Below, piece by piece: positions 3,749-56,030 of a DNA stretch of 56,439 bases. Origin of the DNA: a virus (Duplodnaviria > Caudoviricetes); IMG/VR virus record IMGVR_UViG_3300015264_000006, positions 1 to 56,439 of that record. One strand, 5' to 3'. Each line of letters starts with the position of its first letter. The first letter of the stretch is position 1. The notes beneath the pieces are model-generated. The model searched no databases and had not been told where the DNA came from. It saw only the letters and a list, made by a program, of their open reading frames with translations. Made by a program: the position numbers and the translations under genes.

Positions 3749-3933
3749 ACTGCGGATGGTCGGGGAGACAGGGAGCGGCTTCCAGGCTGCCGCCGCCCGC
3801 CGGGCACTGCCGCCGAAGCGGGGACCCCGGACATCCCATCCCTGAGCGTCTCCCCTGGCGGGAATCCTGCGCCCCCGGCCTGACGGACGCCCGCTCCCCT
3901 GGAGCAGCCGCTACCCGACGACGCGGGGGCTAG

Positions 3934-4009
3934 TGGCGCGGACCGGATTTGAACCGGTGGTCTCTGGCTTATGAGGCCAGCGAGGACAGCCGAGCTCCTC
4001 TACCGCGCT
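3934..4009 (-). tRNA. tRNA-Met (CAT), initiator-like
   Basis: Full cloverleaf: AGCGCGG/CCGCGCC acceptor with a 1:72 mismatch, GAGG/CCTC D stem, CTGGC-CTCATAA-GCCAG anticodon arm, ACCGG-TTCAAAT-CCGGT T arm. Followed by CTA rather than CCA. Confidence 0.92.
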
Positions 4010-23641: not shown

Positions 23642-25567
23642 TCACCGCGGCCTGGCCAGCAGGTACTCGCCGGGCACCGGCACGTCCCGGATCCCGTCCG
23701 GCATCCACACCGTCTCCCCGGAGTACGCCACCTCCCACCCGTAGCCGAGCCTGGACAGCGCGGCCTCCAGGTCGGCGCGGTCGTAGTAGCCGTAGATGGA
23801 GTGGTCCTCGATGAGCAGCACCGGGCGCAGCCGCTCCAGCAGCCCGGCCATGCCCTCGATCGCGTGGATGTCGGCGCCTTCCACGTCGAGCTTCACCAGG
23901 TCGAGGCGGTCCAGGCCGGCGAGCTCAGGCTGCGCGTCGAGCCGCCCGGCGGCCACCAGGCCGCCAGTGCCTGCCTCCGCGGGCAGGACCCGCGTCGAGC
24001 CGCCCTCGGCCTGCCCGTTCGGGTCGGACAGGGCCAGTGCCGTCTGTTCATCCCACGCCGCCAGCTCCACCACCTCGACCACGGCGCCCAGGTCGTTCAT
24101 CGCGATGTGGCGGCGCAGCGTCTTAGCGGTCGCCGGGTTCGCCTCCACCGCGATCACCCGCGACGCCCTCGCGGCGAGGCGCAGCGACCAGTGACCCACG
24201 TGCGCGCCGACGTCCAGGAACACGCCGCCCTCGGGCAGCAGGCCCTCCAGCACCGGGGCCAGCCCGGCCTCGTGGTCACGCCAGCCGATCCCGTCGCCCG
24301 TGCCCGGGCCGCGGTCAATCCACAGCAGCCCGTCCGCCTCCCGCACCGTGGCGGGCCGCACCGGCCGCGGCCCGGACTTCGCCAGGTCCGCGCGCTTCGC
24401 CTCCAGCACGCCCCCGAACTTCGCCAGCACCGGCTTCCAGTACCGCTCCGTCACCACGTCCGCGTCGTAGTCCTGCGCGAACGCGTACGCCTCCGCCCGC
24501 ATCGACTCATCGCGGGCCTTCTCATACGCCTGCTCGTAGGCGTCCGCGATGTCACCTATCCGGGGGACAGCCGCCCACCCGCCCTGGCTGTCGTGCCACG
24601 TCCTCTCCCAGCCGACCTTCCACCCGGAGCCGCACAGCTCCGGCATCGCCGTCGCGTCCGTCACGATCACCGGGGTGCCGCACGCCTGCGCCTCCACGAT
24701 GGGGATGCCGAACCCCTCCCCGTAGGAGCAGTTCGACAGGACATCGGCGGCCCGGTGAACGTCAGCGACCGCGGACGGGTTCAGGCCCTTGCGGTAGGTG
24801 TAGATGTCGGTGTAGGTGTAGGAATCGCGCGGGAGCATGTGCTCCAGGAACGCCCGCAGCCGCATCCCCGACGGCTGGTCCACGTCGGTGTGCAGGACCA
24901 GCATCGCGTCGGAATGCCGCCTGCGGAGCTGCGCGAACGCGGCGACCTGCTCGGCGAACGCCTTCCGGTTGCCATCCCGCCCGACGTTGTTCGCGACCAT
25001 CGCCACCACGAACGCGTCCTCCGGCAGCCCCGCCGCGGCGCGGGCCGCGGCCTTGTCACCAGGGCAGAACACGCTGGTGTCAATGCCGTGCGGCACGTAC
25101 AGCGGGTTCAGGCCCGCACGCTGCAGCGCCGCCTCACCGAAGCGGGACATGGCGATCGGGATGGCGCCCATCACCCCGAACCAGCCCGCCACCACATCCG
25201 GGACGTCCAGGTGATCGACCGGCACCCACGAGCCGACGCACAGCTGGTCCAGCAGCGGCGACTCGAACGTCCACACGTCACCCAGGGTCAGGATGATTCC
25301 CCTGGCCGAGGCTTCCTCCATGCTGCGGCACTTCTCCGCGCCGAAGTGGTGCAGGGCGTGCGGGACGATCACGTCGGCGCCGTACGGCGCCGAGTAGGAC
25401 GGGTAGCAGGTCATCCCGTTCCAGTCCATCTGGGCACCCTGCAGGCCGTAGTAGACCGACAGGGCCACATCGTGGCCGAGGTCACGGATGCGGGGCGTCA
25501 TGATGCCGGTCTGCATTCCGTAACCGGTGGGCGCCCACGGCGCCACCGAATGGAACAAGATCTTCAA
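23642..25567 (-). CDS. GT-B (GT4-like) glycosyltransferase fused to an FkbM-family methyltransferase
   Basis: PTGYG, VPHGID and EGFGIPIVEAQACGTPV; then FLDVGAHVGHWS, VEANP and KLDVEGAD. Confidence 0.9.
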   Translation of the reverse strand: MKILFHSVAPWAPTGYGMQTGIMTPRIRDLGHDVALSVYYGLQGAQMDWNGMTCYPSYSAPYGADVIVPHALHHFGAEKCRSMEEASARGIILTLGDVWTFESPLLDQLCVGSWVPVDHLDVPDVVAGWFGVMGAIPIAMSRFGEAALQRAGLNPLYVPHGIDTSVFCPGDKAAARAAAGLPEDAFVVAMVANNVGRDGNRKAFAEQVAAFAQLRRRHSDAMLVLHTDVDQPSGMRLRAFLEHMLPRDSYTYTDIYTYRKGLNPSAVADVHRAADVLSNCSYGEGFGIPIVEAQACGTPVIVTDATAMPELCGSGWKVGWERTWHDSQGGWAAVPRIGDIADAYEQAYEKARDESMRAEAYAFAQDYDADVVTERYWKPVLAKFGGVLEAKRADLAKSGPRPVRPATVREADGLLWIDRGPGTGDGIGWRDHEAGLAPVLEGLLPEGGVFLDVGAHVGHWSLRLAARASRVIAVEANPATAKTLRRHIAMNDLGAVVEVVELAAWDEQTALALSDPNGQAEGGSTRVLPAEAGTGGLVAAGRLDAQPELAGLDRLDLVKLDVEGADIHAIEGMAGLLERLRPVLLIEDHSIYGYYDRADLEAALSRLGYGWEVAYSGETVWMPDGIRDVPVPGEYLLARPR

Positions 25568-26343: not shown

Positions 26344-26733
26344 CTAGAAGAAGTACGCGCTGATGCTGTTCAGCACGTTGGTGTTCGCCGACATCGTCAC
26401 CCGCAGGTAGCGCCACGGGTAACCGGCCAGCACATACCGGCGGGTCGTCGTCGCTGTGGTCACCGGGCCGAACGTGGCCACGCTGACCACCGTCGGGGAG
26501 GCCGGGTCCGCGTACGGGATGGCGAAGAAGCTCGTCCCGTCCGCCGACCCCTCCACCAGGTAGGTGCAGGTGGGGGTGGCACCGACCGTGGTGATGACCT
26601 CCAGCAGCACCGGGCCGGTACGCCCGCCGCGGTCGATGATGTTCGTCGTCGGCACCGACCCGGCCAGCGCCGTGCACAGGCTGACCGCGGCGGGCGAGTA
26701 CGGGGCGCCGACGTCAACGGCGAGCGTCGCCAT
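26344..26733 (-). CDS. Beta-rich protein after the capsid gene, possible decoration protein
   Basis: VEGSADG..F and WRYLRV motifs; translationally coupled to the capsid gene. Confidence 0.7.
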   Translation of the reverse strand: MATLAVDVGAPYSPAAVSLCTALAGSVPTTNIIDRGGRTGPVLLEVITTVGATPTCTYLVEGSADGTSFFAIPYADPASPTVVSVATFGPVTTATTTRRYVLAGYPWRYLRVTMSANTNVLNSISAYFF

Positions 26734-27983
26734 CAGACCAGGTACTTGGCGAACGCAGCCGGGCGGATCACGTCCCCGCCGACACGCTCCTTGAACAGGA
26801 ACCCGACCAGGCCCTGGTCCGCGTAACGCTCGTCGAGGCGCTGCACCGTGATCCGCTGCCGGTCGCCGATCATGTACCCGGAGCGGATGTCGCCGAACAG
26901 CACCGACGGCGCGGAACCCGGCGCCGGGAGCCCGGACACCCGGTAGAACGCCCGGCCGAACAGCCGGTCCGGCTGCCCCGCCTGGTTAGACGGCTGCCAC
27001 AGGTAGTTCGACGTCGAGTCCTTGAGCAGCGCGATCGACTGCGTCGCGAGGTCGGAGGCGACGTAGGAGCCGACGTTCGCGAACCGGGACAGGATCACGT
27101 ACTGCAGCTTCTTCAGGTCATCCGGCACGATCACCGCCGACGTCGCCGCGGTGACGCCCTGCGCGGCGGGGATCGCCCCGCCGATCGTCGCCCGCGTCGC
27201 GATGCCGAACGGCTTGCTCGTGCCGTTCCCGGCGGCGAACGCGTCGTCTTCCATCTCGGCGAATTTCTGCCCCACGATCTCCTGCACCAGCGACACCAGG
27301 TTCGAGTCGGTGTCCTGCAGCTCATCGACGCCGATCTGCACCAGCGCCACCAGGTCCTGCACGGTGACCGTGTTCGGGCCGGTCGCCGCGATCGCCGCGT
27401 CCGTCGGCGGCGTCGCGCCACCCGCGTTCGTGAGCTCGATCTGCCCCCAGCCGGCGGTCACGCCGGTCAGCGCCCGCACGTCCACCAGGTTGGAGGTGGT
27501 CGGCCTGACCAGCGCCAGGTCCCGCAGCACCCCGAGGCGCGGCAGCTGCAGGAAGATCGGCCCCGCCAGGTCATGCGGGACGATGATCTGCCCGGTCGAG
27601 TTCTCGATGATCGCGGCCTTCTCCTCCATGTTCAGCGAGGAGGCCCCGGTGCGCAGCGCCTTCGCGAACCATTCCGTGGCCATCCGGCCGGACGCCTCAG
27701 CGGCCCGGCCGCCCGGCGGGGTCCCGCCGACGGCGGCCTTGACCTGCGCGTCCAGCACCGGGTGCGGGGTTTCCGGGGCGGCGGACCACGACTCCAGGTC
27801 GTTGTGCTCCTTCTCGGCCGCAGCCAGGTCCCGGAGCCGGAACGCCTCCTTGTTCAGGGCCTTCATGTTCGCCAGCTCATCGGCGGGCATCTTCGTCGGG
27901 TCCGGGAACCTGTCCTTGATCGCCCGGGCGAGGTGAATGCAGTTCAGTGACTTGTCGGTCAGCTCCTGCAGGCGGGTGGTCAT
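26733..27983 (-). CDS. Major capsid protein, HK97 fold
   Basis: N-terminal helical delta domain, AFAAGNGTSKPFG, LKDSTSNYLWQP, LFGD, ERVGG.V..P.AF. Confidence 0.93.
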   Translation of the reverse strand: MTTRLQELTDKSLNCIHLARAIKDRFPDPTKMPADELANMKALNKEAFRLRDLAAAEKEHNDLESWSAAPETPHPVLDAQVKAAVGGTPPGGRAAEASGRMATEWFAKALRTGASSLNMEEKAAIIENSTGQIIVPHDLAGPIFLQLPRLGVLRDLALVRPTTSNLVDVRALTGVTAGWGQIELTNAGGATPPTDAAIAATGPNTVTVQDLVALVQIGVDELQDTDSNLVSLVQEIVGQKFAEMEDDAFAAGNGTSKPFGIATRATIGGAIPAAQGVTAATSAVIVPDDLKKLQYVILSRFANVGSYVASDLATQSIALLKDSTSNYLWQPSNQAGQPDRLFGRAFYRVSGLPAPGSAPSVLFGDIRSGYMIGDRQRITVQRLDERYADQGLVGFLFKERVGGDVIRPAAFAKYLV

Positions 27984-29080
27984 CGTCTTCCTTCCTGGAG
28001 CTCGGCCTCGAGCCGGTCCATGTCTTCTGCCGCCCGGCCGATTTCGAGCTGGGCGAGGGGACCGGCGAGTGCCTGGGGCGGCTCACCGCCGGGTGCGCCG
28101 TCACGCGGCCCGGTAGGGGTGATGAACGACAGCGCGTACCTGGCGCTGGCCTCATCACTGATCACTCGTTCCGCAGTGCCCTCGCCTGGGGCGGCTGCGC
28201 CCGCAGTGGGTTCCGGCCCGCCGGCCGTCCCGGCTGCGTCGTCATCGTCAAGGGGCTGGTACGCGGCGACCAGGAGGTCGGCCGCTGCCTTGGCCGCGGG
28301 CCTGTACGTGATGCTGAGCGCCTTGCCCATCAGGTCGCTGAACTGGCCGAAGTCGAGGCTGGACGACTCTGTGACCTTGCTCCCGAACTTCTCCTGCGCC
28401 GCGCGCACCTTCGGCAGCGCCTGCTTCCCGAACTCCGCCCCCTGGGCGATCCGGACTGCGGCATTATCCGCGTGGGCCCTGTCGTGGACAGGGAAGTGCC
28501 GCAGCGACCTCGGGGTGGTCTTCCCCTCGGCGTCCTTGCTGCCTCCGGGCTCAATGTAGGCGAACGCGGAATCCGGCAGGTCATTGATGCTCGCGGAGGT
28601 CATCGCTGCTTTCGCCGACGCCGTCGCCAGCTCGTTGATGGGGAACGGCGACACCGTCACCTCGAACAGCTTCAGCTCCTGCAGGAACCGCGCCGACTTC
28701 CCGGCATGCTGCCCCAGGTAGTGCTTCACCGCCTGGTAGGTGAACGACATGCCCTTCAGGTGGCCCTCGACCATCTTCGTCCGGACCGACTGGGCCTTCT
28801 GGTCGGAGGAGAACCGGGCCCGCACCCGCAGGCCGGTGGCGTCTTCCCGCGCGTCGTGGACGCTGCCGATCACCCCGGCCGTGGACAGGTCGTGGTCAGC
28901 GATCAGCGGCAGCGGCTGCCGCGAGTGGGACCAGTCGGTGAGCGTCTTCTTGAACGCCCCGGGCATGACGACGTCACCGTCGGCGTCCACGTTCCCGAAC
29001 ACGCTGGCGTAGCCCTCCAGCTCACCCGGGCTGCCGGAGGCGGCTTTCCACTCGACCGGCACGATCATGTGATCCGGCAT
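27980..29080 (-). CDS. HK97-family prohead protease with an extra C-terminal domain
   Basis: EGYASVFGNVD..GDVVMPGAF, His in ADHD, GMSF Ser, LFEVTVSPFP.N. Confidence 0.92.
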   Translation of the reverse strand: MPDHMIVPVEWKAASGSPGELEGYASVFGNVDADGDVVMPGAFKKTLTDWSHSRQPLPLIADHDLSTAGVIGSVHDAREDATGLRVRARFSSDQKAQSVRTKMVEGHLKGMSFTYQAVKHYLGQHAGKSARFLQELKLFEVTVSPFPINELATASAKAAMTSASINDLPDSAFAYIEPGGSKDAEGKTTPRSLRHFPVHDRAHADNAAVRIAQGAEFGKQALPKVRAAQEKFGSKVTESSSLDFGQFSDLMGKALSITYRPAAKAAADLLVAAYQPLDDDDAAGTAGGPEPTAGAAAPGEGTAERVISDEASARYALSFITPTGPRDGAPGGEPPQALAGPLAQLEIGRAAEDMDRLEAELQEGRR

Positions 29081-29089
29081 CGGTGCTCC

Positions 29090-30556
29090 TTACCGGCCGT
29101 GGCCGTTGACGCGGGCCAGGTCTGGCCGCTTGCGCGCGAGATCAGCGAGGAACTCGCCGGCGTAGGACGCCACCCGGACCTGCGGCAGCGGCGGCGCCCC
29201 CGGCTCCAGCCCCGGCTGATCACCCGGCGGCTGCGCGCCGATCACGTCACCGGCCTGCGGCAGCGCCCCCATCGGCAGCGGCACCGCGCCGCGGGGCAGC
29301 AGGAACACGTCCCCGGCCGCGTCGGTGTCCAGGCCCACGATCCGCCGGAAGTCGTTGACCGTGATCCCGCCGTGAGACAGGGCGTTCACCGCCCGCTCCC
29401 ACTTCGACGACTCGGCCTCCTGCAGGGCCAGCACCTGGCTGTTGTCCCACCGGACAGCCACCCGCGCCCGGCCCGTCCCGGAGAACTCCGCCAGCAGCCG
29501 CGTCTCCACCGGGTCACGGAACCGCCGCTGCAGGGAAAAAATGGCTTCTTCCCACAATTGTTTACGCGCTTCTTGGTAATTCGTAAAAGTGCTTCTATCC
29601 AATCCTACCTTTGCGCCGACAAGGATTGGGGGAACTTGCATTGCGGCACAAATGCGCGATTCTGAAATGGCCCGCAGGTCCGGGAACTCCAGGTCCCGCA
29701 GGTTCATCCCCAGCGGCTGCACGTCCATCCCCGCCTGCAGCACCGCTGGCTCACCGCGGCGGGCGCCGGCGAACGCGGCCTTCCACTTGCGTTTCAGCAT
29801 GTCCGCGACGGCCTGCGTCGTCTCCGTCGCCGTCTTGATCACCACGCCCGGCACCGCGTAGTTGCGCAGCAGCGTGTCCACGAAATCGGTGGCCGAGTTG
29901 TCCAGCGACACCGCCCGCGCCGCCGGCCGCAAGGGCGGCTGCCCGAAATAGGCGCTCAGCGGGTTCGGGTACTTCACGTGGATGATGTCCCGGTACGCGA
30001 TCGGGATGATCGCCGCCGTGACGTTGCGCGGGCCCGTCGTCGGGTCCAGGACATACCCGTAGGACCACACCCGCGGGTCGGTGGTCGGGAAGATGCGGAT
30101 CAGGTCCGGGCGCACCGGCCACAGCTCCGCCGGGAGGCCGTCGCGGCCCCGCTGGATCAGCCAGTAGGAGTTCCCCGCCAGGTCCAGGTACGTGACGCTG
30201 AGCTCGAAGAACTCGAACTCGCCGGTCACGGGGTTCGGCCGGGAGATCAGCCGCCGCAGCCGGTGGCTCTCCAGCGGCTCCCCGTGCGCCACGGGCTGGT
30301 CCCCCGGGTAGACCCGCAGCACCGACTGGGGCAGGTTCTCCGCCCGCTCCCGGATGCACGCGTAGACGAGCTCGTTGCGGCCGTACCCCGCCGACGCGGA
30401 CGACTGGTAGGACGAGTCCGGGTACAGGGCACCGTCGAGGTTCGGCTTCCCCCCGGCGAACGGCGGGACCTGGATGACGTTCTGGGTGCCGTCACCGCGG
30501 GGCAGCAGCAGCGCGGACGCCTTGCGCTCCGCCGCCGACCCGTCAAGCCAGCCCAT
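29090..30556 (-). CDS. Portal protein
   Basis: VYACI, LAGNSY, LWPVRPD, G.PPL..A, ICAAMQVPP.LVG and TFTNY motifs. Confidence 0.93.
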   Translation of the reverse strand: MGWLDGSAAERKASALLLPRGDGTQNVIQVPPFAGGKPNLDGALYPDSSYQSSASAGYGRNELVYACIRERAENLPQSVLRVYPGDQPVAHGEPLESHRLRRLISRPNPVTGEFEFFELSVTYLDLAGNSYWLIQRGRDGLPAELWPVRPDLIRIFPTTDPRVWSYGYVLDPTTGPRNVTAAIIPIAYRDIIHVKYPNPLSAYFGQPPLRPAARAVSLDNSATDFVDTLLRNYAVPGVVIKTATETTQAVADMLKRKWKAAFAGARRGEPAVLQAGMDVQPLGMNLRDLEFPDLRAISESRICAAMQVPPILVGAKVGLDRSTFTNYQEARKQLWEEAIFSLQRRFRDPVETRLLAEFSGTGRARVAVRWDNSQVLALQEAESSKWERAVNALSHGGITVNDFRRIVGLDTDAAGDVFLLPRGAVPLPMGALPQAGDVIGAQPPGDQPGLEPGAPPLPQVRVASYAGEFLADLARKRPDLARVNGHGR

Positions 30557-31104: not shown

Positions 31105-31515
31105 ATGACCCCGCCGATCAGGCCATGGCAGAAACTGCCGTACGTGTCCTGTTACTGCTGTCCCGCCCAGGCCACGTACCGTGCCGCAGCGGCATCCTTG
31201 GTGCCCGATGACAGATACGAAGGCGACGGGATCGCGCTGACTTTCACAGACGAGCCGGAACGCGCGAGCCTGCTGGCCTGCGATGAGCATTTTGAGCAAG
31301 CCATGCAGTCAGTTAGGGAGACCTCAGACGCGGACGGCTCCATCGGCGGGCCGCTGCGGCTTCCCTGGCGGTGCTGGTTTCTCTATTACTCGACGACCGG
31401 GCGGCCGATCGGGGACTTCGCCGTGAAGCTGTCCAACTGGAGGTTTGAGCGGTGGTCGGCTAGGGCCGATGACTCCCTGATAGCTCAGAAAACGTCAGGC
31501 TCAGGCGGAACCTGA
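31105..31515 (+). CDS. Hypothetical protein (antisense cassette 5, probably leaderless)
   Basis: CATACT 6 nt before the ATG; CxxC...C.EH motif; lower GC than neighbours. Confidence 0.6.
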   Translation: MTPPIRPWQKLPYVSCYCCPAQATYRAAAASLVPDDRYEGDGIALTFTDEPERASLLACDEHFEQAMQSVRETSDADGSIGGPLRLPWRCWFLYYSTTGRPIGDFAVKLSNWRFERWSARADDSLIAQKTSGSGGT

Positions 31516-33032
31516 ACCCCGAACGTCGCATGGCCGTGGCGGGCCAGGGTGACCGCCTCCAGCGGGCTCACAGGCGCCGCGGCACCGCGCCACGACCACG
31601 CCCACGCATCTGCCAGCGACCGGGTCCGGGCACCCTCTGCGGCCGCGTCCAGCGGCCCCTGCCCGAGATGCCGCCACCGGCCGTTCTTCACGTCCTGGGC
31701 CAGCGCGCCGCAGCCCTGCGCGTACTCCCGCATGGACGTCATCTGCAGCCGCCGCTTACCCGGCGGCGGGTCCTTCCCCGGCGCCGTCACCGCGAACCCG
31801 CGCCCGATCAGCTCTTTCGCGAACGCGCCGGCCGCCCCGGCCGGGTTCATCACCAGCACGCACGGGTCATGCGCATCCGCCAGCTCGCACAGCCGGTCAG
31901 CCAGCCCCGCCGTGTCCTCATGCGGCGGCTCGGTCAGCTCCCCGTGGCCCAGGCCATCCGCCCGGCGGCCCGCCACCGCCACCGACCACGTACCCGGCCA
32001 CGGCGACTCATCAGGCTCCACCGCGAACGCCAGCGCCACCGGCCCGCTGATCTGCGACGCCGGGTCAGCCAGGCCCGCCCACGCCGCGACGAAACCAGCA
32101 CCGGCCCTCATCCCCGACCGGTCCGGGACATTCCCGTACGCCCGGGCGAACTCAGGTGCTTCCATTGACACCCGCTCACTGCGGATCGCGTCCAGCGTGA
32201 TCGTGTGCCGCCACTTCCCGCCGCCGCACCGGCACGGAGGCGACGGGCACAGCGCCGGCATGAACCCGAAGTAGGAGTCCTCGTCCAGCGGGTCCCAGCC
32301 CTCCGGCGCCGAGTACTCGAAATAGGCGATCCCGTGCCCGGAGTCCTCCCGGGCCGCGGCACGGCCCAGCTCCATCTGCCGGTCCAGCACCACCGACGCC
32401 GCAGTCCCCGCTGTCGAGCACACCAGCACCTGCGCATCAGCGATCGTGATCATCGCCGGGCCCAGGCCCTGCTCCCGGCGGTTGTCGGTGTCATGCCAGA
32501 TCTCGTCTAGCACCGACTGGTGCAGCGTCTTGGAGTGCCCCGACGACGACGACGTCGACAGCAGCCGGATCAGCGACCCGTTCGTGAACGAGATGTACTC
32601 GTTGCCCATGCCCTCATAGATCCGCCGGACCAGCGGCTTCAGTTTCCTCGACCGGCGGATCAGCGGGAACAGCTCATCCAGCCACTTATCCCGCGCGTCC
32701 TTCCCCGACTGCGCCGTGAACGCCGACCGCTGCGGATGCGACCACCTCGGCGCAGTGCACCGGTGGATCTGGAACGCCAGGAACAGCGTCGTCTTCCCCG
32801 TCTGCCGGGGCACCGTGACGATGATCTTCCGGTAAGCCGGCAGCCCCGTCTGCCCGTCGATCTCCCCCCCGACCATGGCGATGTCCCGCTGGTGGGGCAT
32901 GAACGGCTGGCCCAGCGCCGCGCCGATCCCGGTCAGCTCACCGCCGAACGACTCCCGCTCAGGCCTGCGCCTCGTCGCGTACTTCGGGGAACAGCTCGGC
33001 AAGAGCCGCGTCGGCGGAGCCGTCATCGTCAT
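31485..33032 (-). CDS. terL: Terminase large subunit
   Basis: Walker A VPRQTGKT, Walker B VLDE, STAG motif. Confidence 0.92.
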   Translation of the reverse strand: MTMTAPPTRLLPSCSPKYATRRRPERESFGGELTGIGAALGQPFMPHQRDIAMVGGEIDGQTGLPAYRKIIVTVPRQTGKTTLFLAFQIHRCTAPRWSHPQRSAFTAQSGKDARDKWLDELFPLIRRSRKLKPLVRRIYEGMGNEYISFTNGSLIRLLSTSSSSGHSKTLHQSVLDEIWHDTDNRREQGLGPAMITIADAQVLVCSTAGTAASVVLDRQMELGRAAAREDSGHGIAYFEYSAPEGWDPLDEDSYFGFMPALCPSPPCRCGGGKWRHTITLDAIRSERVSMEAPEFARAYGNVPDRSGMRAGAGFVAAWAGLADPASQISGPVALAFAVEPDESPWPGTWSVAVAGRRADGLGHGELTEPPHEDTAGLADRLCELADAHDPCVLVMNPAGAAGAFAKELIGRGFAVTAPGKDPPPGKRRLQMTSMREYAQGCGALAQDVKNGRWRHLGQGPLDAAAEGARTRSLADAWAWSWRGAAAPVSPLEAVTLARHGHATFGVQVPPEPDVF

Positions 33033-34671: not shown

Positions 34672-34742
34672 GCGCCCGTAGCTCAGAGGAAGAGCAAACC
34701 ACTCGCAGGGTCAGGCCGCAGGTTCGAATCCTGCCGGGCGCG
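34672..34742 (+). pseudogene. tRNA-Arg-like RNA with a degenerate anticodon arm
   Basis: Perfect GCGCCCG/CGGGCGC acceptor, GCTC/GAGC D stem and GCAGG-TTCGAAT-CCTGC T arm; anticodon arm has only 3 bp and is 1 nt short. Confidence 0.75.
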
Positions 34743-34777
34743 CGTGCCCATACAGGCTACAAGGTTTCTTGCCAACG

Positions 34778-36198: not shown

Positions 36199-36615
36199 TC
36201 ACAGCAGGCCGGCCAGTACGATCAGCGGCAGGGCATTCCATATGTCCCACACGTCAGAGCTGGACTGCCAGAGGTGGCCGTCAGTGTCGCCGTGCGGGTG
36301 CTCGCCGCATCTGAGATAGATGACCTTGTCGCCATTGCAGGTGGCGGAGCTAAACTCCCGTCCGCGAAAGTCACATCGATACCGCTCGCGAACTTCGGCT
36401 GAACGGACAAGCGAGCCGTCAAGCGAGCCGATGACCTCGATTATGCCGGTGGCAGCAAACGGCTTGCGAGCGCCAGTGCGAATGCGGCCGAACGGCTTGA
36501 TCAGGAAGGGATCTACCTCGTCAAGCTGACGAGCGACGCTCAGGGTGACCTGCCGTGAGCCGACCATCAGCACGCGGACCTCAGCGGTCAGTACCTCAAC
36601 CGTCGCGGTGCTCAT
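36199..36615 (-). CDS. Hypothetical protein
   Basis: Starts MSTATVEVLTAEVR; coupled at both ends; lower GC. Confidence 0.75.
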   Translation of the reverse strand: MSTATVEVLTAEVRVLMVGSRQVTLSVARQLDEVDPFLIKPFGRIRTGARKPFAATGIIEVIGSLDGSLVRSAEVRERYRCDFRGREFSSATCNGDKVIYLRCGEHPHGDTDGHLWQSSSDVWDIWNALPLIVLAGLL

Positions 36616-37493
36616 GCCGTGCCGCCTGGCAGCCACAGCGGCAGCCCCGCCCGCATGACCGCATCCCACCCGATGCGCCCGGTCAGGACGCCGTTCACGT
36701 ACTCCGCGAACGCCGGCGGGAGGACGCCGCCGGGCGAGTGCGCCAGCGTCAGCCGCACGATCACCGACGGGTCCGTGCCGTGCTGGCGGGCGAGCCCGGC
36801 CAGGGACGACTGCCCGGCGGTCACGTGCAGCACCGGGCCGGACGGCCTGGGCGGCGGCGCGAACAAGCGGATCCACGCGTCCAGGTCCGCGCTCGTGCCG
36901 TTGAACGCGTCGCGGTCCACCCCGTTGCGGATGCCGTACTGCCAGAATTTCCACGACGACCACGGCTTCACCTCCGCCGGCGACGGCGCGGTAGCGGCGG
37001 GGTGGGCGATCCACAGGGCGTACCGGTCCAGGCCCGCGCAGTACCCGCCCTTGGCGAAGCTGAGGAACGTGTAGACGCCGCGCGGGTTGCGGGGGCACAG
37101 CTTGTCCAGCTCAGCCATGAACGCGCGGGCGCACGCCGCGGTCTCGCGGAAGCCGGGGTTGGCCGGGTTCTCGTTGTCGAGCCACAGCATGTCCTGCGGG
37201 GTCAGGCCGAGGTCGTGGTAGGCGGCGGCGAACCGGGCGGCCTGGGCGGCGCCGGACTCGAACGGGTCGAGGAAGTGGTAGGCGCCCCTGTGCAGGCCCC
37301 TCTTGGCGATCTCGGCGTGGTTCCACTGCGCTGTGGGATCAGGCGAGTTGGTGCCGGGCGTGGACAGGCCCTGGGTGAGGCGGTGGATGCCGAACGACAG
37401 GCCGGACGTGGCCGACCAGGCGAACTTCCCCTGAAAATTGGACACGTCCAGGCCCTGGGCGGAGCGGACGGTGGTAGCTGCGGGGTGGGTCAT
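36612..37493 (-). CDS. GH25 muramidase with a degenerate LysM-like C-terminal domain
   Basis: GLDVSNFQG, GAYHF, LDNE (DxE), LWIA, FWQY, VDRD.FNG; SLAGLARQHGT. Confidence 0.9.
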   Translation of the reverse strand: MTHPAATTVRSAQGLDVSNFQGKFAWSATSGLSFGIHRLTQGLSTPGTNSPDPTAQWNHAEIAKRGLHRGAYHFLDPFESGAAQAARFAAAYHDLGLTPQDMLWLDNENPANPGFRETAACARAFMAELDKLCPRNPRGVYTFLSFAKGGYCAGLDRYALWIAHPAATAPSPAEVKPWSSWKFWQYGIRNGVDRDAFNGTSADLDAWIRLFAPPPRPSGPVLHVTAGQSSLAGLARQHGTDPSVIVRLTLAHSPGGVLPPAFAEYVNGVLTGRIGWDAVMRAGLPLWLPGGTA

Positions 37494-37957
37494 GCGGTGC
37501 CTCCTGCGGGCTCGTACGTGGCTTCGAAGATGTCGGGCTTGGCAATGCCGAATAGGAAATCTGCTGCGCGCAGTAGCAGGGTTGGGTTGTCCCTGAAGAA
37601 GCCGAGTCCCTTGTTGCACGGTGCGCAGAGGCGACCTCGAACCCGGCCTGTCTGATGGCTGTGATCGATGCAGAGGCGCTCGGTCGCACCACAGATGACG
37701 CAGACCATTGGCATTGCATCCCACTGGGCCTGCGTTAGGCCGAATGCGCTCCTGGCCTTATGGGCCGCCACGCGCTCTTTGTTCTCGGTCACCCACGCCT
37801 TGTGGGCAGCCTTGGCCTTCTCCGTGTTGGCGGCGTAGTAAGCGCTGCTTGCAGCCTGGCTGCATGCCTTGCACCAGCTCGTCGGCTTCGCCCTGGTCTT
37901 GTCGCGGTAGAACTCGCTCAGCGGCTTGGCTACACGGCACTTCGAGCACGTCTTCAT
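37490..37957 (-). CDS. Endonuclease VII-family nuclease
   Basis: CVICG...IDHSHQTGRVRGRLCAPCNKGLG.FRDN; N-terminal Zn finger. Confidence 0.9.
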   Translation of the reverse strand: MKTCSKCRVAKPLSEFYRDKTRAKPTSWCKACSQAASSAYYAANTEKAKAAHKAWVTENKERVAAHKARSAFGLTQAQWDAMPMVCVICGATERLCIDHSHQTGRVRGRLCAPCNKGLGFFRDNPTLLLRAADFLFGIAKPDIFEATYEPAGGTA

Positions 37958-38232
37958 TCGCTCACGGCCTCGTAAGTCAGGGCGAAAACATCTGCGGCGC
38001 AGGGGTAGAGCTCGGACTTGACGCCGCGGATGATCCAGTCGCCGGGGCGGAATTCCATGTCGCCCTCCAGCGTCGTGATGTAGCCGCCGTCGTTGGTGCG
38101 GCTTTTCCACGTGTGGCCAGGAGCCGATGAGCCGCCGAGGAATGCGGTTACCTCGGTGCAGCTGTCTCCGCTGCCGGTGAACTGGACGGCCTCGATGACG
38201 ACGGGCTTCTTGCGGTACCGCTGGCTGGTCAC
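37954..38232 (-). CDS. Conserved phage protein (RKKPVVIEAVQF family)
   Basis: YRKKPVVIEAVQF...TLEG.M...GDWIIRGV..E.YPC. Confidence 0.85.
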   Translation of the reverse strand: MTSQRYRKKPVVIEAVQFTGSGDSCTEVTAFLGGSSAPGHTWKSRTNDGGYITTLEGDMEFRPGDWIIRGVKSELYPCAADVFALTYEAVSE

Positions 38233-38444: not shown

Positions 38445-38578
38445 AGCAGGCTCCGGCTTTTTGTCTTTTCCATTTCAATTCCGCTTTTCCCGCGCGCATC
38501 GCGCGTTGCCAGTCGTTCAAGATTTCTGCGCGTCAGTTAGGTGGGGTCTCCGTTAGTCCGTCCGTCCGTCCGTGCTCT

Positions 38579-38730
38579 TGTGACAAGCATTGTGACAAGC
38601 ATTGTGACAAGCATGTTTCCGCAGGTCACACGGCGTTTTGAGCATCGTGACAAGCATCGTGACAAGCATCGTGAAACGGACATTGAGCATCGTGACATCT
38701 GAGTTTCACCTGGCCTGAGCATCGTGACGC
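38579..38730. repeat. 12-bp iteron array, probable replication origin
   Basis: 3 x tgtgacaagcat (38579-38614), tandem agcatcgtgaca (38641-38674) and copies at 38686 and 38718, next to an AT-rich tract at 38458-38488. Confidence 0.8.
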
Positions 38731-40274: not shown

Positions 40275-40766
40275 TTACGGGCTGAGCTGGCGGATGGTGA
40301 TGACCGCGCCGGGCAGGCCGAGGCTGGTGAGGCCGCCGGTCGTGCAGCACGGGTAGTCCTTGACGGCCAGGACCCGGACGGCCTGGGCGTCGTCGTGCCA
40401 GACCCCGGCAGCCGTCAGTGCGTCGAAAGTGGACCGGACGTACTTGTCGATGTCGGGCCGCTTGTCCGGCCAGGTCCGCCGTGTCTTCGGCGCGCTGGCT
40501 GGCCGGCGGACGGTGAAGTGGATGACGACGTCGAGCGGCCCGTCGTAGGGCGGGTGCTCACCCCAGCCCATGGCCTCCCCGGCGGCGTTCCGGACGTCCT
40601 GCCGCCAGTTCGTGACGCCTGCCTTGGCTGACTCGGCCATGGACACGCGGGCCTTCCCGCCGCCCTTGGGGATGTAGGCCCGTGCTGTCTTCGACCCCTG
40701 CGGCGCGGGGGTGCCGTGCACGGTGATGGTGACCGGCGGGCGCGGGCCGGCCAGCGGGGCGGTCAC
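40275..40766 (-). CDS. rusA: RusA-family Holliday junction resolvase
   Basis: G.PAPQGSK, PDIDK..RS..DAL...VW.DD.Q. Confidence 0.9.
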   Translation of the reverse strand: MTAPLAGPRPPVTITVHGTPAPQGSKTARAYIPKGGGKARVSMAESAKAGVTNWRQDVRNAAGEAMGWGEHPPYDGPLDVVIHFTVRRPASAPKTRRTWPDKRPDIDKYVRSTFDALTAAGVWHDDAQAVRVLAVKDYPCCTTGGLTSLGLPGAVITIRQLSP

Positions 40767-45208: not shown

Positions 45209-45732
45209 GCCGCGCTCCTCATGTTGTGGCCGCTCATGAAGCGCCGGTCACGGCCTTTGCTGTCTGGTGTCTCGATCTGCTCGCCGCACCCGCAGGCACA
45301 CGCGATCAGGACTCGGGGCTTGCGCCTGGCGGCCACTGCCTGCGCGATCGTGACCTGCCGAAGTCCAGTCCTGTATGCGTGCCGCATGTTGTCCGGACGT
45401 GTCAGGTACTCGAGATTCCAGGCGGCCGGCTGCTGCTTGTCGCCGTCCTTGTGATTGACCTCATGGCCAGGCGGGCACGGCCTGATGAACGCAGCGGCAA
45501 CGAGGCAGTGAACGAGTCGCGTTGACGGCCGGCCGTCACGCCAGAGCTGCACAACCAGATAGCTGCCGGGTGCCACCTCGTGCGCCTTGAGTACGCGGCC
45601 GATGCGGGCGCCCCCGCCATGCCCGGCGCCGTTGCGTGCGGCCCGGCCGATGCGTCGCACCCGGCCACGGTCGCTCACTTCGTAGGCCGGGAAGCCCTCG
45701 ACGATGGCCCAGCCCTCGAACGCGTCAGCCAT
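45205..45732 (-). CDS. NUMOD4-HNH homing endonuclease
   Basis: YEVSDRGRVR (NUMOD4), VHCLVA.AF, VNHKDGDK...NLEY....N..H, CACGCG. Confidence 0.88.
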   Translation of the reverse strand: MADAFEGWAIVEGFPAYEVSDRGRVRRIGRAARNGAGHGGGARIGRVLKAHEVAPGSYLVVQLWRDGRPSTRLVHCLVAAAFIRPCPPGHEVNHKDGDKQQPAAWNLEYLTRPDNMRHAYRTGLRQVTIAQAVAARRKPRVLIACACGCGEQIETPDSKGRDRRFMSGHNMRSAA

Positions 45733-46825
45733 CGGTGGCCTCCCCGCTGGCGTCCTGCTCGATGCGGGTGGCGGCGGCCAAGAGGCCGGCGCGGTCCTTG
45801 ATGCCGTTGAGCCGGCCGATCGCGGTCCGGGCCTGGGCCTCGGTGAGGTCCTTAGTGGACTCCAGGTCATCAGGGACGCCGGCGAGGCGGGCGGTGAAGA
45901 CCAGGCGCTCCTCGCGGTCGTGGTCCTCGTAGCCGAGCTTGCTGAACGCGGTGCGGATGATGCCGACCTGCCCGCTGCTGGCCCGCGCGGGCGGCCGCTC
46001 AGCGCCGTCGCCGCGCGGGTCCGCTGGCTCATCGGGCGGCAGGGGCACGTCGAGCCTGGCGGCCATCTTGCCGGGCTGCTCAGCCCAGTCGTCGCGGGTC
46101 CGCTGCTGGCGGGGCGGCCGGCGGGTGGTGATGTCCTCGGCGGTGATCCGGACAGCCGCAGGCGCGGGGTCGCCGGGCCCGCCGGCGGGCTGGACCTCCT
46201 CGGGGATGTAGATCCCGCCGAGGTCGTGCGGGAACGCGCGGCGCAGCGCGAACGCCTCGGCGCACTTCTCGATCATGTGGTCGGGCTGTGTTTTCCACTG
46301 CCCGGCCGGTTCGCCGCCCTTGGTGAGCTGCATGTACGAGGCGGTGCGGCAGACGCCGGGGTACCGCTTGCCGTCCTTGAGGACGACGACTTTCGCCGCG
46401 GCGGGCGGGTAGTCCCAGAGCCACACGCCGTGCTGGCCTCCGTCGCCGTCGTACCAGATGGTGTCCTCGTACTCGACGGTGAGGCCGAGGCGCTGGGCGA
46501 TGCGGTCGCGGATGACCTGGAAGCCGCCGATGCCGACCTGGATGGTCCACTTGGTGACCCACTGCTCCTGCCACTGCCCGCGGTCGTCCTGCCACTTCTC
46601 CTTGTTGCGGCGGCCGATGTAGTAGATCTGCCTGCTGAACGGGTCGAGCTGGGTTTTCTGGCAGTAGTGCATGAACACGGCCAGCTCAGCGTCGGAGCAG
46701 TCCTTGATGCCGAGGACGGCCAGGCCCGCCTTCTGCTTCTCGTTGAATGTCTCCTGGCCGGGCTTGATGACCAGGCCGGACAGGGGTGCGGGACGGGTGG
46801 CGATGCCGTTTCCGGGGGTGCTCAT
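45725..46825 (-). CDS. RecT/Bet-like ssDNA annealing recombinase
   Basis: LDPFSRQIY, QVGIGGF, P.HM..KCAEA.ALRRAFP.DL.G.Y..EE. Confidence 0.9.
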   Translation of the reverse strand: MSTPGNGIATRPAPLSGLVIKPGQETFNEKQKAGLAVLGIKDCSDAELAVFMHYCQKTQLDPFSRQIYYIGRRNKEKWQDDRGQWQEQWVTKWTIQVGIGGFQVIRDRIAQRLGLTVEYEDTIWYDGDGGQHGVWLWDYPPAAAKVVVLKDGKRYPGVCRTASYMQLTKGGEPAGQWKTQPDHMIEKCAEAFALRRAFPHDLGGIYIPEEVQPAGGPGDPAPAAVRITAEDITTRRPPRQQRTRDDWAEQPGKMAARLDVPLPPDEPADPRGDGAERPPARASSGQVGIIRTAFSKLGYEDHDREERLVFTARLAGVPDDLESTKDLTEAQARTAIGRLNGIKDRAGLLAAATRIEQDASGEATDG

Positions 46826-47031: not shown

Positions 47032-47255
47032 CAGGAGGCCCCTTTCGGCGGCCGGGTGGTGACCTCGAAGAGCGGCAGGATCTGCCAGTTGTCGTCGCCC
47101 ATGCCGGGCAGCCGCTGGAGGCTCTTCATCGCGCCCTCGGCCGCGACCGGATTCTCGTAGGGGCCGTAGACGCCCTTGACGGCTGAGCCGTCGTAGTAGC
47201 TGACGACGATGACGGCGCGGCGGTAGGTCTCGCCGGCGTTCGGGCTGGCGGCCAT
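47031..47255 (-). CDS. Hypothetical protein
   Basis: Coupled ORF starting MAASPNAG. Confidence 0.55.
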   Translation of the reverse strand: MAASPNAGETYRRAVIVVSYYDGSAVKGVYGPYENPVAAEGAMKSLQRLPGMGDDNWQILPLFEVTTRPPKGAS

Positions 47256-48100
47256 CAGTAACCGGTGTCCTCTCGGGTGGCCCACGCGGGCAGGGTGATC
47301 TCGGTGAGGCCGTCGCCGTAGCCCGGCCAGTCCCCGGTCTCGGTGCATGCCCGGTAGACGTCGATCGCCCGGCTGTTGCGATTGCGGCCGATGCGGACCG
47401 CATCAGGGATCAGCTCGATGACGTTGACGAGATAGGGAGGGCTCTTTTCCTGGGCCACGAACCAGAAAGCAACATCCGCCCCGGTCACCGCGGCCAGGCC
47501 GTCTTGGTAGTGGGCGTGCTGCTGGTGATATCCGTAGTCCGCGCAGGCCTTCCCGAACTTGCCCGGGTCAGCGGAATCGGCGGTCTTGTAGTCGACGATG
47601 ATGAGCTGGCCGGTGCCGGGGTCATACATCCAGTCGAGGCGGGCGCGCAGCTGCGTGCCGGTGCGCTGGTCGGCCCAGTACACGGACTGCTCGGCCTGCC
47701 CGTGCTCGGGGTCTAGGAGGTTCCACGCGAGCGGGTGCTCTTCCAGCGCGGCGGCCATGGCCCGGCACTGAGCCAGCTCCCTGGTCAGCAGCGGGATCTT
47801 CCCCCCGGCGCGGGCGTCGTCGCGCTGCTGCTTCGCGGCCTTGGTCATCCAGTTGTCGCAGGTGACCTCTACGATGTCGGGGCCGTTGCCGAGGACGAGG
47901 TTGTGGGCGCCGGATCCGAAGTCCCACACCTTCTTGCGCTCGGGGTGGTCCTGGCGCCAGAAGAACTTAGCCGGGCAGTACGGCGGGAGCAGGAGCTTGG
48001 CGCCGGAGCAGGACAGCGCCCACGTGTCGCCGAAGTAGTCGGCCTCGGGGATGTCGTGGATCCCGGCGGCGCGCGGCGGGGCATCGGCGGTGGCTGTCAC
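47255..48100 (-). CDS. RecE / exonuclease VIII-like PD-(D/E)XK exonuclease
   Basis: LS.SGAK.LL, FGS..H, RARLD, IVDYKT, YGY..Q...Y, QEK.PPY. Confidence 0.88.
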   Translation of the reverse strand: MTATADAPPRAAGIHDIPEADYFGDTWALSCSGAKLLLPPYCPAKFFWRQDHPERKKVWDFGSGAHNLVLGNGPDIVEVTCDNWMTKAAKQQRDDARAGGKIPLLTRELAQCRAMAAALEEHPLAWNLLDPEHGQAEQSVYWADQRTGTQLRARLDWMYDPGTGQLIIVDYKTADSADPGKFGKACADYGYHQQHAHYQDGLAAVTGADVAFWFVAQEKSPPYLVNVIELIPDAVRIGRNRNSRAIDVYRACTETGDWPGYGDGLTEITLPAWATREDTGY

Positions 48101-48393
48101 TCTGGCTCCCTGCGCATCTGCTCTTCCATCTGCCGCGCCCACTGCGCATGCTCGGCGGCGCGGTCCCGCTCGGCGCGGACGGCGGTGTGGCGGGGACACC
48201 AGATGCACCCGCACTTGTGGATGGTCACGCCGGGCAGCACGTGGACCCGCTCGGCGGTGGCGTCGGCCAGGGCCGAGATGCGGGGGTCCTGCTCCGGCGG
48301 CGGGATAGTGGCGCCGCGCAGGACCCGGCCGAGCAGCGGCGCGCCGATCAGCACGCCGAACGCGTAGAGGGTGATGGCGTCAGGCCACGTCAT
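48097..48393 (-). CDS. Small membrane-anchored protein
   Basis: N-terminal TM segment; CGC..C..H. Confidence 0.55.
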   Translation of the reverse strand: MTWPDAITLYAFGVLIGAPLLGRVLRGATIPPPEQDPRISALADATAERVHVLPGVTIHKCGCIWCPRHTAVRAERDRAAEHAQWARQMEEQMRREPE

Positions 48394-56021: not shown

Positions 56022-56030
56022 GTTCGCGAG

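Follow-up and report, generated by a model that had tools for sequence, protein, structure and literature searches.

Homing elements are said to pass through a cycle of gain, nuclease decay and loss, an idea attached since 1999 to the names of Goddard and Burt, in which occupied and empty alleles share one gene pool, as they do at the locus described here. For phage portal genes, the preprint of Gosselin et al. (10.1101/2025.01.02.630785) describes five separate groups of portal inteins. For silent variation beside homing-element sites, Repar and Warnecke 2017 (PMC5378118) name two candidate mechanisms, transfer with co-conversion or mutagenic repair, and the same two are candidates here. In Torulaspora, according to Osborne, Monnin and Wolfe (10.64898/2026.08.13.744650), WHO elements act on a 28-bp site in the essential gene FBA1, whose alleles vary in sensitivity and whose target diversifies to evade cleavage. 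Here, a patch of unusual silent codons in a phage portal gene is read, with a probability of roughly 0.6, as an uninterrupted ('empty') intein homing-site allele with diverged silent positions.

The window, i.e. the whole 56,439-nt stretch of DNA that was analysed, is the record of a high-GC soil phage (71.4% GC); a 77-nt repeat at the record ends looks like an assembly overlap. The phage is temperate, with an integrase at 67-1065, and encodes RecT and a PD-(D/E)XK nuclease of its own. Its head module follows the order terminase, portal, protease, capsid, all on the minus strand. The portal ORF matches Pfam PF04860 (Phage_portal) over residues 64-407 (E 2.4e-61, 208.1 bits versus a cut-off of 39.1), and its closest solved structure is the RcGTA portal 6TBA (E 1.8e-25). 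The features are:

31485-33032, minus strand: large terminase (GpA_ATPase), head module, flanking the portal
29090..30556, minus strand: portal gene, HK97 family, 488 aa, an uninterrupted ORF without an intein in this phage
29534..29668, minus strand: recoded patch, codons 297-341 of the portal gene, GC3 0.40, amino acids kept
27980-29080, minus strand: prohead protease (Peptidase_S78), head module, on the other side of the portal
26733-27983, minus strand: capsid (Phage_capsid), head module, after the protease

The patch is real and purely synonymous. Positions 29536-29668 have 44.4% GC, the lowest value among all 133-nt windows of the record (mean 71.5%, sd 5.1), followed by 47.4% at 38576-38708 and 50.4% at 55999-56131. 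A GC3 sliding window, proposed in the first-pass annotation, gives 0.40 for codons 297-341, the minimum of 9,956 45-codon windows across 66 called genes (mean 0.922, sd 0.074). Further, 23 of the 45 codons are rare, each making up less than 10% of its synonymous family across the rest of the genome. That annotation had described a sharply bounded, AT-rich tract inside the portal gene that preserves the motif ICAAMQVPP.LVG...TFTNY, and its coordinates, codons, motif and composition are all as described. Its sharp bounds are likewise confirmed: in 15-codon bins, GC3 drops from 100% in one flank to 40, 40 and 40% within the patch and returns to 93% in the other, and these edges are common to the AT-type alleles of relatives. 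Compared with the closest relative, L003, 32 of 33 comparable amino acids in the patch are identical, and the proportion of differing synonymous sites (pS) is 0.94 in the patch versus 0.21 in the flanks.

That an assembler joined a high-GC phage to a low-GC relative has a practically negligible chance. The contigs of relatives do often break near the patch, as such a chimera might have it, yet a second assembler's contig from run X1 (30,933 nt, depth 78; X1 may be the source sample) covers the whole gene with 0 differences, the metagenome contigs L040, L054 and L055 match the patch and 100 nt on either side with 0 mismatches and indels only, and six more distinct AT-type alleles, every one in frame, occur in other assemblies. 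Contigs thus cross the patch, and the failure of reads to span it, which the first-pass annotation had named as grounds for dismissal, did not occur. The contigs of runs X2-X4 are parts of relatives only, those of X2 entering a GC-type patch from both edges; they show no joint at the intein site, where a lack of cover carries no information. Across the contigs of all four runs X1-X4, a form of sequence that drops rare variants, no intein-bearing form was seen. Separately, 8 of 26 contig ends inside the gene fall in codons 321-361, a count biased by one search pattern at codons 332-339.

Patch alleles vary widely among relatives. Across the 40 relatives read through all 45 codons, patch GC3 spans 0.40-0.97 while the encoded amino acids stay the same: seven lie at or below 0.53, seven at 0.62-0.76 and 26 at 0.80 or above. 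When the whole gene is divided into 15-codon bins, GC3 is low only at codons 297-341 in this phage, L023, L014, L016/17, L022, L028, L015 and others. A codon alignment with related portals, which had also been suggested, yields the local peak of silent difference where amino-acid difference is lowest: among 16 clade members, the synonymous codon difference is 0.61 and 0.60 in the patch bins versus 0.16-0.41 elsewhere, and the amino-acid difference in the patch bins (0.00-0.07) is the gene's lowest. AT-type alleles differ mutually by 10-24% in the patch, and those nearest to this phage's patch are 18.5% different.

The intein insertion points of relatives map onto this gene as follows, with a slash marking each junction:

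29582..29587, minus strand: empty intein site B, F324/T325 (29585/29584), with T325 as the +1 nucleophile; site of the L027 intein
29588..29596, minus strand: alternative insertion points R321/S322 (29594/29593) and S322/T323 (29591/29590), placed by eye
29648..29653, minus strand: empty intein site A, I302/C303 (29651/29650), with C303 as the +1 nucleophile; site of the P0166/L140 intein
30356..30361, minus strand: third intein site of the family, A66/C67, with a 381-aa LAGLIDADG intein in P0166/L140; negative control

The +1 nucleophile residues C303, S322, T323 and T325 are all retained in this phage's portal. The first-pass annotation had called for a search for inteins at the patch in relatives, and they occur there in L027 at F324/T325 and in L140 at I302/C303. 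In particular, L027, which belongs to the same clade and is 88% identical in protein, has a 370-aa LAGLIDADG intein at F324/T325 (...DRSTF/CLPYSS...IVVHN/TNYAEARKQLWEE); the insert is in frame, the portal resumes after it, and the hallmarks Cys1, a terminal ...VVHN and a +1 Thr are present. Pfam matches of the L027 protein are Intein_splicing (1e-8; 35.6 bits, just below the cut-off of 35.8), LAGLIDADG_3 (7.7e-5; 23.3 bits versus a cut-off of 22.5) and Hom_end (1.8e-3). The C-terminal splicing region of the intein resembles PI-MtuI (E 3.6e-6), and its nuclease region weakly matches PI-PkoII and PI-PfuI (E about 1e-3).

A search with the L027 intein alone matched 43 proteins. Of 26 portals taken from that search, the junction is readable in 25 and lies no more than four codons from F324/T325, mostly at the equivalent point (by eye), and at least 24 portals besides L027 carry homologous inteins within that range. 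Junctions read by eye take the form GL[DE][RH]/C...N/S in P0128, P0130, P0136, P0139 and P0141, GLDRS/C...N/TF in P0140 and GLQR/C...SN/STF in P0167. Site A, 22 codons upstream of F324/T325, is used by a different intein family: P0166/L140, whose portal is 48% identical, carries a 374-aa intein there, between ...ETRI and CGAFGVEPILVG, inside the patch span; its BLASTP segments split at query residues 302/303, and it has a Hint_2 domain at residues 689-735 (43.8 bits) and a LAGLIDADG_3 match of 53.3 bits. In viral contigs, the L027 intein found two 28%-identical loci only. Portal proteins of 646-749 aa were also considered as intein carriers and rejected, being C-terminal fusions.

The silence of the patch and its exact overlap with the relatives' intein points indicate that it is most likely an intein-free target rewritten in conflict with a selfish element. 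In a mixed infection, the endonuclease would cut the uninterrupted GC-type sequence across the junction, and repair would then copy the intein plus the adjoining portal sequence. Alleles with other silent positions across the recognition sequence would escape the cut and be kept, and could spread among phage lineages via homologous recombination, for which RecT and the PD-(D/E)XK nuclease would be at hand. Because ~92% of native third positions are G/C, nearly every silent change lowers GC, so that a rewritten site appears 'AT-rich'; the A/T content is probably a by-product rather than a function.

Distances from the target are consistent with this reading. Compared with L027's rebuilt target, this phage differs at 21 of 60 bases and at 13 of the central 30, the latter being the largest difference within the clade (tied with L023), whereas GC-type alleles differ at 2-4 of the 30. 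The first-pass proposal of a recoded homing-endonuclease target is favoured by these central differences and by the relatives' LAGLIDADG inteins inside the patch; as to its consequence, the sequence comparison predicts that the recoded form is probably resistant to the intein's endonuclease. We infer both the activity of that endonuclease and the place where it binds; this phage's allele would go uncut, and selection, not a neutral scar, would maintain the patch.

LAGLIDADG recognition sites span ~20-40 bp. Around F324/T325 the patch reaches from -84 to +51 (135 nt), which is longer than such a site and counts against the homing-site reading. The I302/C303 site would account for the upstream reach; its intein is seen only in the 48%-identical portal, outside the clade. 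Moreover, there is no recoding at A66/C67, where codons 55-80 have a GC3 of 0.81-1.00 in all relatives covering them (1.00 here), and therefore an intein site elsewhere in the family does not alone predict recoding.

A reach of ~50-85 nt per side is closer to the scale of a repair tract than to that of a recognition site, as would be expected if the patch were a mutational hot spot where repeated cuts and error-prone repair let silent sites drift to an A/T-biased equilibrium and selection holds the protein; mutagenic repair is also one of the two mechanisms of Repar and Warnecke. Consistent with a hot spot, as with a rewritten site, each of the 18 pairs tested has a higher pS in the patch than in the flanks, including pairs within either allele class (AT or GC). 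The A/T shift also recurs in the 65%-identical lineage L005/L029, whose amino acids differ and whose GC3 is 67 in bin 312 and 47 in bin 327. The explanation is nevertheless improbable. Its flank branch is short (0.032 per site), yet the patch is 29% different from its sisters, and the switches between Ser TCG and AGC and between Arg CGC and AGA require non-synonymous intermediates; together these indicate that the patch was imported in this phage, not mutated in place. Likewise, the four-fold sites show, by eye, 10 changes to A/T versus 4 to the other G/C base, which is near the unbiased 2:1 and leaves no extra A/T pressure. The strand asymmetry of transitions on either side of the site, also judged by eye, is uninformative, since the codons dictate the silent changes.

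Returning to the rewritten-target reading, the flank tree shows how the patch would have arrived. In it, this phage is sister to the GC-type L003 (SH-aLRT 99), with the GC-type L020 and L021 next, and the distance to L003 is 29.3% in the patch versus 8.2% in the flanks. The AT state requires at least six changes on the tree among 28 rows, and an AU test rejects the AT types as one clade (p 7.5e-57), for a group named post hoc from the tree. This conflict between patch state and flank tree indicates that patch alleles move by recombination. The multi-base codon switches to AGC at Ser322 and AGA at Arg321 are common to several flank lineages, which favours exchange over repeated invention. Given the 10-24% difference among its alleles in the patch, the empty-recoded class is old; it also moves between lineages.

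The same observations bear on a neutral explanation, according to which the patch is a co-conversion tract from a diverged intein donor whose intein was later lost, e.g. by recombination with an empty allele, with no advantage to its carrier. The tract brackets the insertion points and its state is discordant with the flank tree; as in co-conversion, it adjoins the insertion site and has a history unlike that of the rest of the gene. L027 is a mosaic centred on the intein: GC-type sequence surrounds the insertion, between AT-type codons 297-308 and 334-341, the pattern expected of a co-conversion tract. The same scenario was put forward by Repar and Warnecke for exon diversity beside mobile introns, likewise donorless in their account. 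We consider such a scar unlikely, because occupied alleles carry native-type rather than AT-type flanks in L027, in L140 and, among nine distinct intein-bearing portals from other families, in eight, which also speaks for the rewritten target. The exception, L069, has its intein beside an AT-shifted flank (GC3 0.46 against 0.80). In favour of the rewritten target, all four empty members (L014, L028, L016 and L017) of the L027/L026 clade (support 99), the nearest empty relatives of the intein allele, are AT-type. The L027 mosaic also counts against it, suggesting either invasion of an AT-type allele or its recombination with an occupied allele. Taken with the L069 flank, it indicates that recoded alleles may not be immune.

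A neutral scar is also opposed by the encoded protein and by the donor searches. The patch encodes the clade's own residues, including the clade-specific AAMQ and NYQE, whereas relatives with 73% identity already have 4 differences among the 45 patch residues, which makes a low-GC donor unlikely. Nor did any DNA donor come to light. Neither the gene nor the patch had a blastn match among 50,697 phage records, no viral contig contained an exact 35-mer, and a degenerate pattern that preserves the codon families of the patch had 0 hits in viral contigs as well as in reference genomes, searches in which the phage's own record may be masked. A low-GC portal matching at the DNA level, which the first-pass annotation had said would mean simple import, thus did not turn up in these three collections. 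In a tblastn search for cultured relatives, 1,085 phage records matched, all below 60% identity, the 40 matches listed lying at 24-32%; no prophage relatives were found in reference genomes. A donor lineage with the same tract beside an intein, as co-conversion would have it, was not found in these searches.

The composition of the patch could instead reflect an A/T-rich signal without any link to inteins, such as an Lsr2-type nucleation site, an internal promoter or rare-codon slowing of translation at the motif. No other 133 nt of this temperate phage are as rich in A/T, and about half of the codons are rare; a look for phage tRNAs serving these rare codons gave only a tRNA-Met plus one odd call. 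We regard a signal of this kind as very unlikely, as GC-type patches with the same protein occur in 26 of the 40 relatives, including the three closest to this phage, and the feature is therefore dispensable. This also speaks against an obligatory Lsr2 site, and the internal promoter proposed in the first-pass annotation finds 0 promoter-like and 0 terminator-like sites in 29300-29900. The coincidence of the patch with two intein insertion points is a further argument against an unrelated signal.

For CRISPR, which the annotation had also raised, or a further guide-based defence, the conserved portal motif would offer a predictable target that silent changes evade. Its chance is slender: ~39 changes over 135 nt go far beyond what spacer escape needs, and when a 23-base GC-type core was scanned against 185,579 reference genomes, a weak test based on one core only, the single hit (L139) was a chance match in an unrelated gene, outside any repeat array. 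Nothing was found in favour of a scar of terminus replacement, the end repeat being an apparent assembly overlap as described above. A diversity-generating retroelement variable region was considered and rejected; within the record, 29400-29800 has a single further match, of 19 nt, and the changes are silent.

A rewritten empty site may have a wider counterpart. Tentatively, at somewhat under even odds, empty homing sites are recoded at silent positions in general, as a so far undescribed layer of intein-host conflict, in which three classes (occupied, empty-sensitive and empty-recoded) coexist in phage gene pools, and in which the recoded block covers neighbouring homing sites, travels as a small cassette and shows up in any one genome as an abrupt island of codon usage, hence predicting where elements strike and which alleles resist. 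Should the rewritten-site reading be right, a sharp island of unusual silent codons would mark conflict with a selfish element without knowledge of the element itself, and would be a cheap means of searching metagenomes for homing sites and for alleles that are candidates for resistance. It would also give a natural three-allele system (occupied, sensitive and recoded) for the study of homing-element persistence, and a reason why the metagenome contigs of relatives break at the portal motif. Further, codon-usage outliers within conserved genes need not signal foreign genes or regulation.

Among described systems, the inteins of this family resemble those of actinobacteriophage portals (Kelley et al. 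2016, PMC5050341; Gosselin et al.), which are class-1 LAGLIDADG inteins at conserved portal motifs; the L027 intein and its ~24 homologues are of this kind. Those portals carry other family annotations (InterPro IPR009279; POG1190), and the likeness is claimed for kind only. Unlike them, this phage has an empty site and no intein. Silent recoding of empty sites is absent from the main texts of these two reports, where 'synonymous' occurs 0 times; 'codon' is absent from one and appears twice, for stop codons, in the other.

As in the case of Repar and Warnecke, extra silent variation adjoins a homing-element site, the protein constraint is not relaxed, and there is no donor in the account given. 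Their case concerns fungal mitochondrial introns and gradients of SNP density; this phage, in contrast, has an intein site, a sharp-edged block, saturated silent change, a strong shift in composition and discrete allele classes. The WHO elements share with the present system a LAGLIDADG nuclease and a diversifying target. At FBA1, where one half of the gene is replaced by the element, cleavage was assayed and the target is under positive selection, whereas the present element is an intein, its target changes at silent positions only and the case is built from sequence alone. Beyond the cycle of Goddard and Burt, the data here add a third class of allele, empty but recoded.

The A/T-rich patch of the portal gene is best read as an intein homing site that is empty and whose allele has diverged at silent positions. 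The window is a temperate tailed phage with 71.4% GC (whole record, 56,439 nt), and its integrase, head module and phage-encoded recombination genes are located as follows.

67-1065, integrase
26733-27983, minus strand, capsid, head module
27980-29080, minus strand, prohead protease, head module
29090-30556, minus strand, portal (Pfam PF04860, E 2.4e-61), head module
31485-33032, minus strand, large terminase, head module
40275-40766, minus strand, RusA, phage-encoded
45725-46825, minus strand, RecT, phage-encoded
47255-48214, minus strand, PD-(D/E)XK nuclease, phage-encoded

The first-pass annotation described a sharply bounded A/T-rich tract that retains its protein motif, and the measurements agree. 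In particular, the patch covers codons 297-341, and positions 29536-29668 have 44.4% GC, the lowest of all 133-nt windows in the record (mean 71.5%, sd 5.1). Its GC3 of 0.40 is the lowest of 9,956 45-codon windows in 66 called genes (mean 0.922, sd 0.074), 23 of its 45 codons are rare (below 10% of their own synonymous family), and the adjoining 15-codon bins have 100% and 93% GC3; the encoded motif, ISESRICAAMQVPPILVGAKVGLDRSTFTNYQEARKQLWEEAIFS, is conserved. An assembly artefact is ruled out, as a contig from metagenome run X1, built by a different assembler (30,933 nt, depth 78), covers the complete gene without a single difference, and three further metagenome contigs (L040, L054 and L055) match the patch and its surrounding ±100 nt with 0 mismatches and only indels, which are common throughout these contigs. 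X1 may be the record's source sample, and its contig is therefore a second assembly rather than a second sample.

The patch is purely silent. The related loci fetched for comparison came from viral contigs (11) and metagenome contigs (43). In L003, the closest relative (95% protein identity), 32 of 33 comparable patch residues are identical and almost all codons different; the proportion of differing synonymous sites (pS) is 0.94 in the patch versus 0.21 in the flanks. Codon differences between the window and its relatives include switches between TCG and AGC (Ser) and between CGC and AGA (Arg). Across the 40 loci covering all 45 codons, some of which are one contig present in two collections, patch GC3 is at most 0.53 in 7, 0.62-0.76 in 7 and at least 0.80 in 26, and despite this range the amino acids are essentially unchanged. 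Alleles with low patch GC3 are called AT-type here, and those with ordinary high GC3 GC-type. In gene-wide 15-codon bins, low GC3 is restricted to codons 297-341 in the window, L023, L014, L016/17, L022, L028, L015, L025 and L037, and it recurs in these bins of the 65%-identical L005/L029, there with different amino acids. The local excess of silent change anticipated at first pass is present in a codon alignment of 16 clade members, where silent codon differences are highest in bins 297-311 (0.61) and 312-326 (0.60), compared to 0.16-0.41 elsewhere, and amino-acid differences are lowest where they peak. Further, all 18 pairs tested have a higher pS in the patch than outside it, and this also holds inside each of the two classes, AT-type and GC-type.

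This distribution bears on the proposal that the patch is an A/T-rich signal, such as an Lsr2-type silencer site, an internal promoter or a translational pause. Such a signal is unlikely because 26 of the 40 relatives, including the three closest, do not have the patch; moreover, a scan of 29300-29900 found no promoter or terminator motif. Removal of a CRISPR target has no support, with no supporting match in one weak test of a 23-base GC-type core against reference genomes.

In relatives, inteins are inserted inside the patch. The portal frame of L027 (88% identical, same clade) runs to ...GAKVGLDRSTF, continues with 370 residues (CLPYSS...GIVVHN) and resumes with TNYAEARKQLWEEAIFS. The insert shows the hallmarks of a class-1, LAGLIDADG-type intein: it matches the Pfam families Intein_splicing (1e-8; 35.6 bits versus a cut-off of 35.8), LAGLIDADG_3 (7.7e-5; 23.3 bits versus a cut-off of 22.5) and Hom_end (1.8e-3), together with PI-MtuI (E 3.6e-6) and PI-PkoII and PI-PfuI (E ~1e-3). 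Its GC3 of 0.87 is similar to that of its host gene. The insertion point corresponds to F324/T325 of the window (base junction 29585/29584), and L026, the sister contig of L027, ends exactly at residue 324. An intein-only query of 5.8 billion proteins returned 43 matches, from which 26 portal-domain carriers were fetched; in the 25 with a readable junction, read by eye, it is equivalent to F324/T325 in most, to R321/S322 in five and to S322/T323 in one. A search for longer homologues returned P0166, a 48%-identical portal (DNA locus L140) with two inteins, at A66/C67 (381 aa) and I302/C303 (374 aa), the second of which also falls inside the patch. The patch therefore begins 6 codons before one site and ends 17 codons after the other.

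Alleles with and without inteins have different flanks. In the clade of L027 and L026 (support 99), all four empty members are AT-type. L027 itself is a mosaic, having AT-type codons in common with L014 and L016 at 297-308 and 334-341, and GC-type codons in about 16 positions before and 9 after the intein, the pattern expected of a co-conversion tract brought in by the intein. For other families, 21 intein-bearing portals were aligned and loci fetched from viral contigs; 17 were parsed and 12 contained an intein, among which L065 is cut by a contig end and L059 duplicates L060. In the 9 distinct others, the flanks (28 codons upstream and 17 downstream of the intein) have no A/T shift when set against the remaining gene. 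The exception is L069, where upstream flank GC3 is 0.46 versus 0.80 in the remainder; here a recoded allele may have been invaded despite its recoding. The second intein of L140 likewise has native-type flanks (GC3 of 0.90 and 0.87). The A/T-shifted form is therefore found mainly in empty alleles. Compared to the target rebuilt from the L027 flanks, the window differs at 21 of 60 bases and 13 of the central 30, tying with L023 for the largest central difference within the clade, whereas GC-type alleles differ at 2-4 of the central 30. Separately, several portal inteins among L060, L061, L067, L069, L071 and L140 are clearly below their host genes in GC3 (0.50 versus 0.70-0.75 in L060; 0.69 versus 0.86-0.88 for the second intein of L140), which fits movement between phages of differing base composition, and in some of these loci the intein-adjacent flanks are richer in G/C than the remaining gene.

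A gene tree built without codons 291-345 places the window beside L003 (SH-aLRT 99), then L020 and L021, all three of which are GC-type. On this tree, the AT-type state changes at least 6 times among 28 rows, and the AU test rejects a tree uniting the 8 AT-type rows (p 7.5e-57), a group named after the tree was seen. The window differs from its sisters by 29-30% in the patch versus 8-10% in the flanks; its patch is 18.5-20% different from the nearest AT-type alleles. The AT-type class itself is old and diverse, with alleles 10-24% different from one another. Because the window's branch is short and multi-base codon switches are common to several flank lineages, recombination with an unsampled AT-type allele is the most likely source of its patch, rather than change in place. 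A repair-linked mutational hot spot would account for the raised silent divergence in every pair tested and for the recurring A/T shift in L005/L029, but the same short branch and multi-step switches make it improbable. The phage's own RecT, PD-(D/E)XK nuclease and RusA would favour short-tract exchange between co-infecting relatives.

Somewhat less improbable than a hot spot, though still doubtful, is a neutral co-conversion scar of intein traffic, which fits the patch's place and the phylogenetic conflict; against it, the patch amino acids are native, occupied alleles have GC-type flanks, and no donor was found in phage records (blastn, 50,697), nor a pattern match in viral contigs or reference genomes. 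A low-GC portal with a DNA match, the outcome expected of simple import, was not found in these collections either. As a side observation, contig ends of relatives cluster at the patch, with 8 of 26 in-gene ends in codons 321-361 (our own count, in which one of the search patterns, located at codons 332-339, introduces a bias); contigs ending nearby are L003, L026, L043, L055, L052, L056, L038/L009 and L025, and the palindromic contig L051 folds back at about codons 340-344. These ends are probably assembly-graph branching, where several patch alleles with or without an intein have common flanks.

Among the first-pass proposals, removal of a homing-endonuclease target is the one favoured, with inteins at the patch site and an allele far from the L027 target; resistance itself is a prediction from sequence difference. 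The patch allele most likely persists through escape from the intein's nuclease, and most likely spreads by recombination. Its A/T-richness would be a by-product of silent divergence: with G/C at about 92% of third positions in this genome, nearly every silent change reduces GC, and the window's changes at four-fold sites (10 to A/T versus 4 to the other G/C, own count) are near the unbiased 2:1. However, a single LAGLIDADG site is too short to span the patch. The second site at I302/C303 would explain this length, its intein being known only from a distant relative; yet the third site of that relative, A66/C67 (window 30356-30361), has no silent recoding in any sampled relative (GC3 0.81-1.00). 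The L027 mosaic and L069 also suggest that recoded alleles can be invaded.

Elsewhere in the genome, an exact 77-nt direct repeat at the record ends (1-77 and 56363-56439), adjoining the integrase gene, is explained most simply by assembler overlap of a circular genome, rather than as a physical terminal repeat. The second-lowest GC3 window (0.47) arises from a lower-GC stretch immediately upstream of the GH25 lysin, where a 206-aa ORF (37490-38110, minus strand) has a recombination endonuclease VII domain (PF02945, E 3.4e-16) and the start of the listed lysin ORF (36612-37724) is probably placed too early. The second most A/T-rich 133-nt window (47% GC), at 38556-38708, has no called high-GC3 gene, only short, overlapping listed ORFs, and contains two perfect 12-nt tandem-repeat arrays (38578-38614 and 38641-38674), which may be operators or origin repeats. 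ARAGORN reports tRNA-Met (3933-4009) as the sole ordinary tRNA and a tRNA-like gene (34672-34743, plus strand) with a two-base anticodon, 'cg'. Among the virion genes, a 641-aa protein (23642-25567, minus strand) fuses a group-1 glycosyltransferase to an FkbM-type methyltransferase. No close cultured phage was found by tblastn, where each of 1,085 matches had below 60% identity (24-32% among the 40 listed); runs containing parts of the window are labelled soil metagenomes.

Inteins in portal proteins of actinobacteriophages are already known (Kelley et al. 2016, PMC5050341; Gosselin et al. preprint, 10.1101/2025.01.02.630785), and the word 'synonymous' is absent from the main texts of both. 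No description of composition-shifted silent recoding of empty intein sites was found in the literature searched, which included few subscription journals. The closest concepts are the raised exon diversity beside mobile introns, for which Repar and Warnecke (2017, PMC5378118) discuss the same two candidate mechanisms as are proposed for the window's patch; the arms race, demonstrated by experiment, of WHO nucleases with the FBA1 gene that they target (Osborne et al. 2026 preprint, 10.64898/2026.08.13.744650); and the frequent recombination inside an actinophage methylase gene around its intein (Gosselin et al. 2023).
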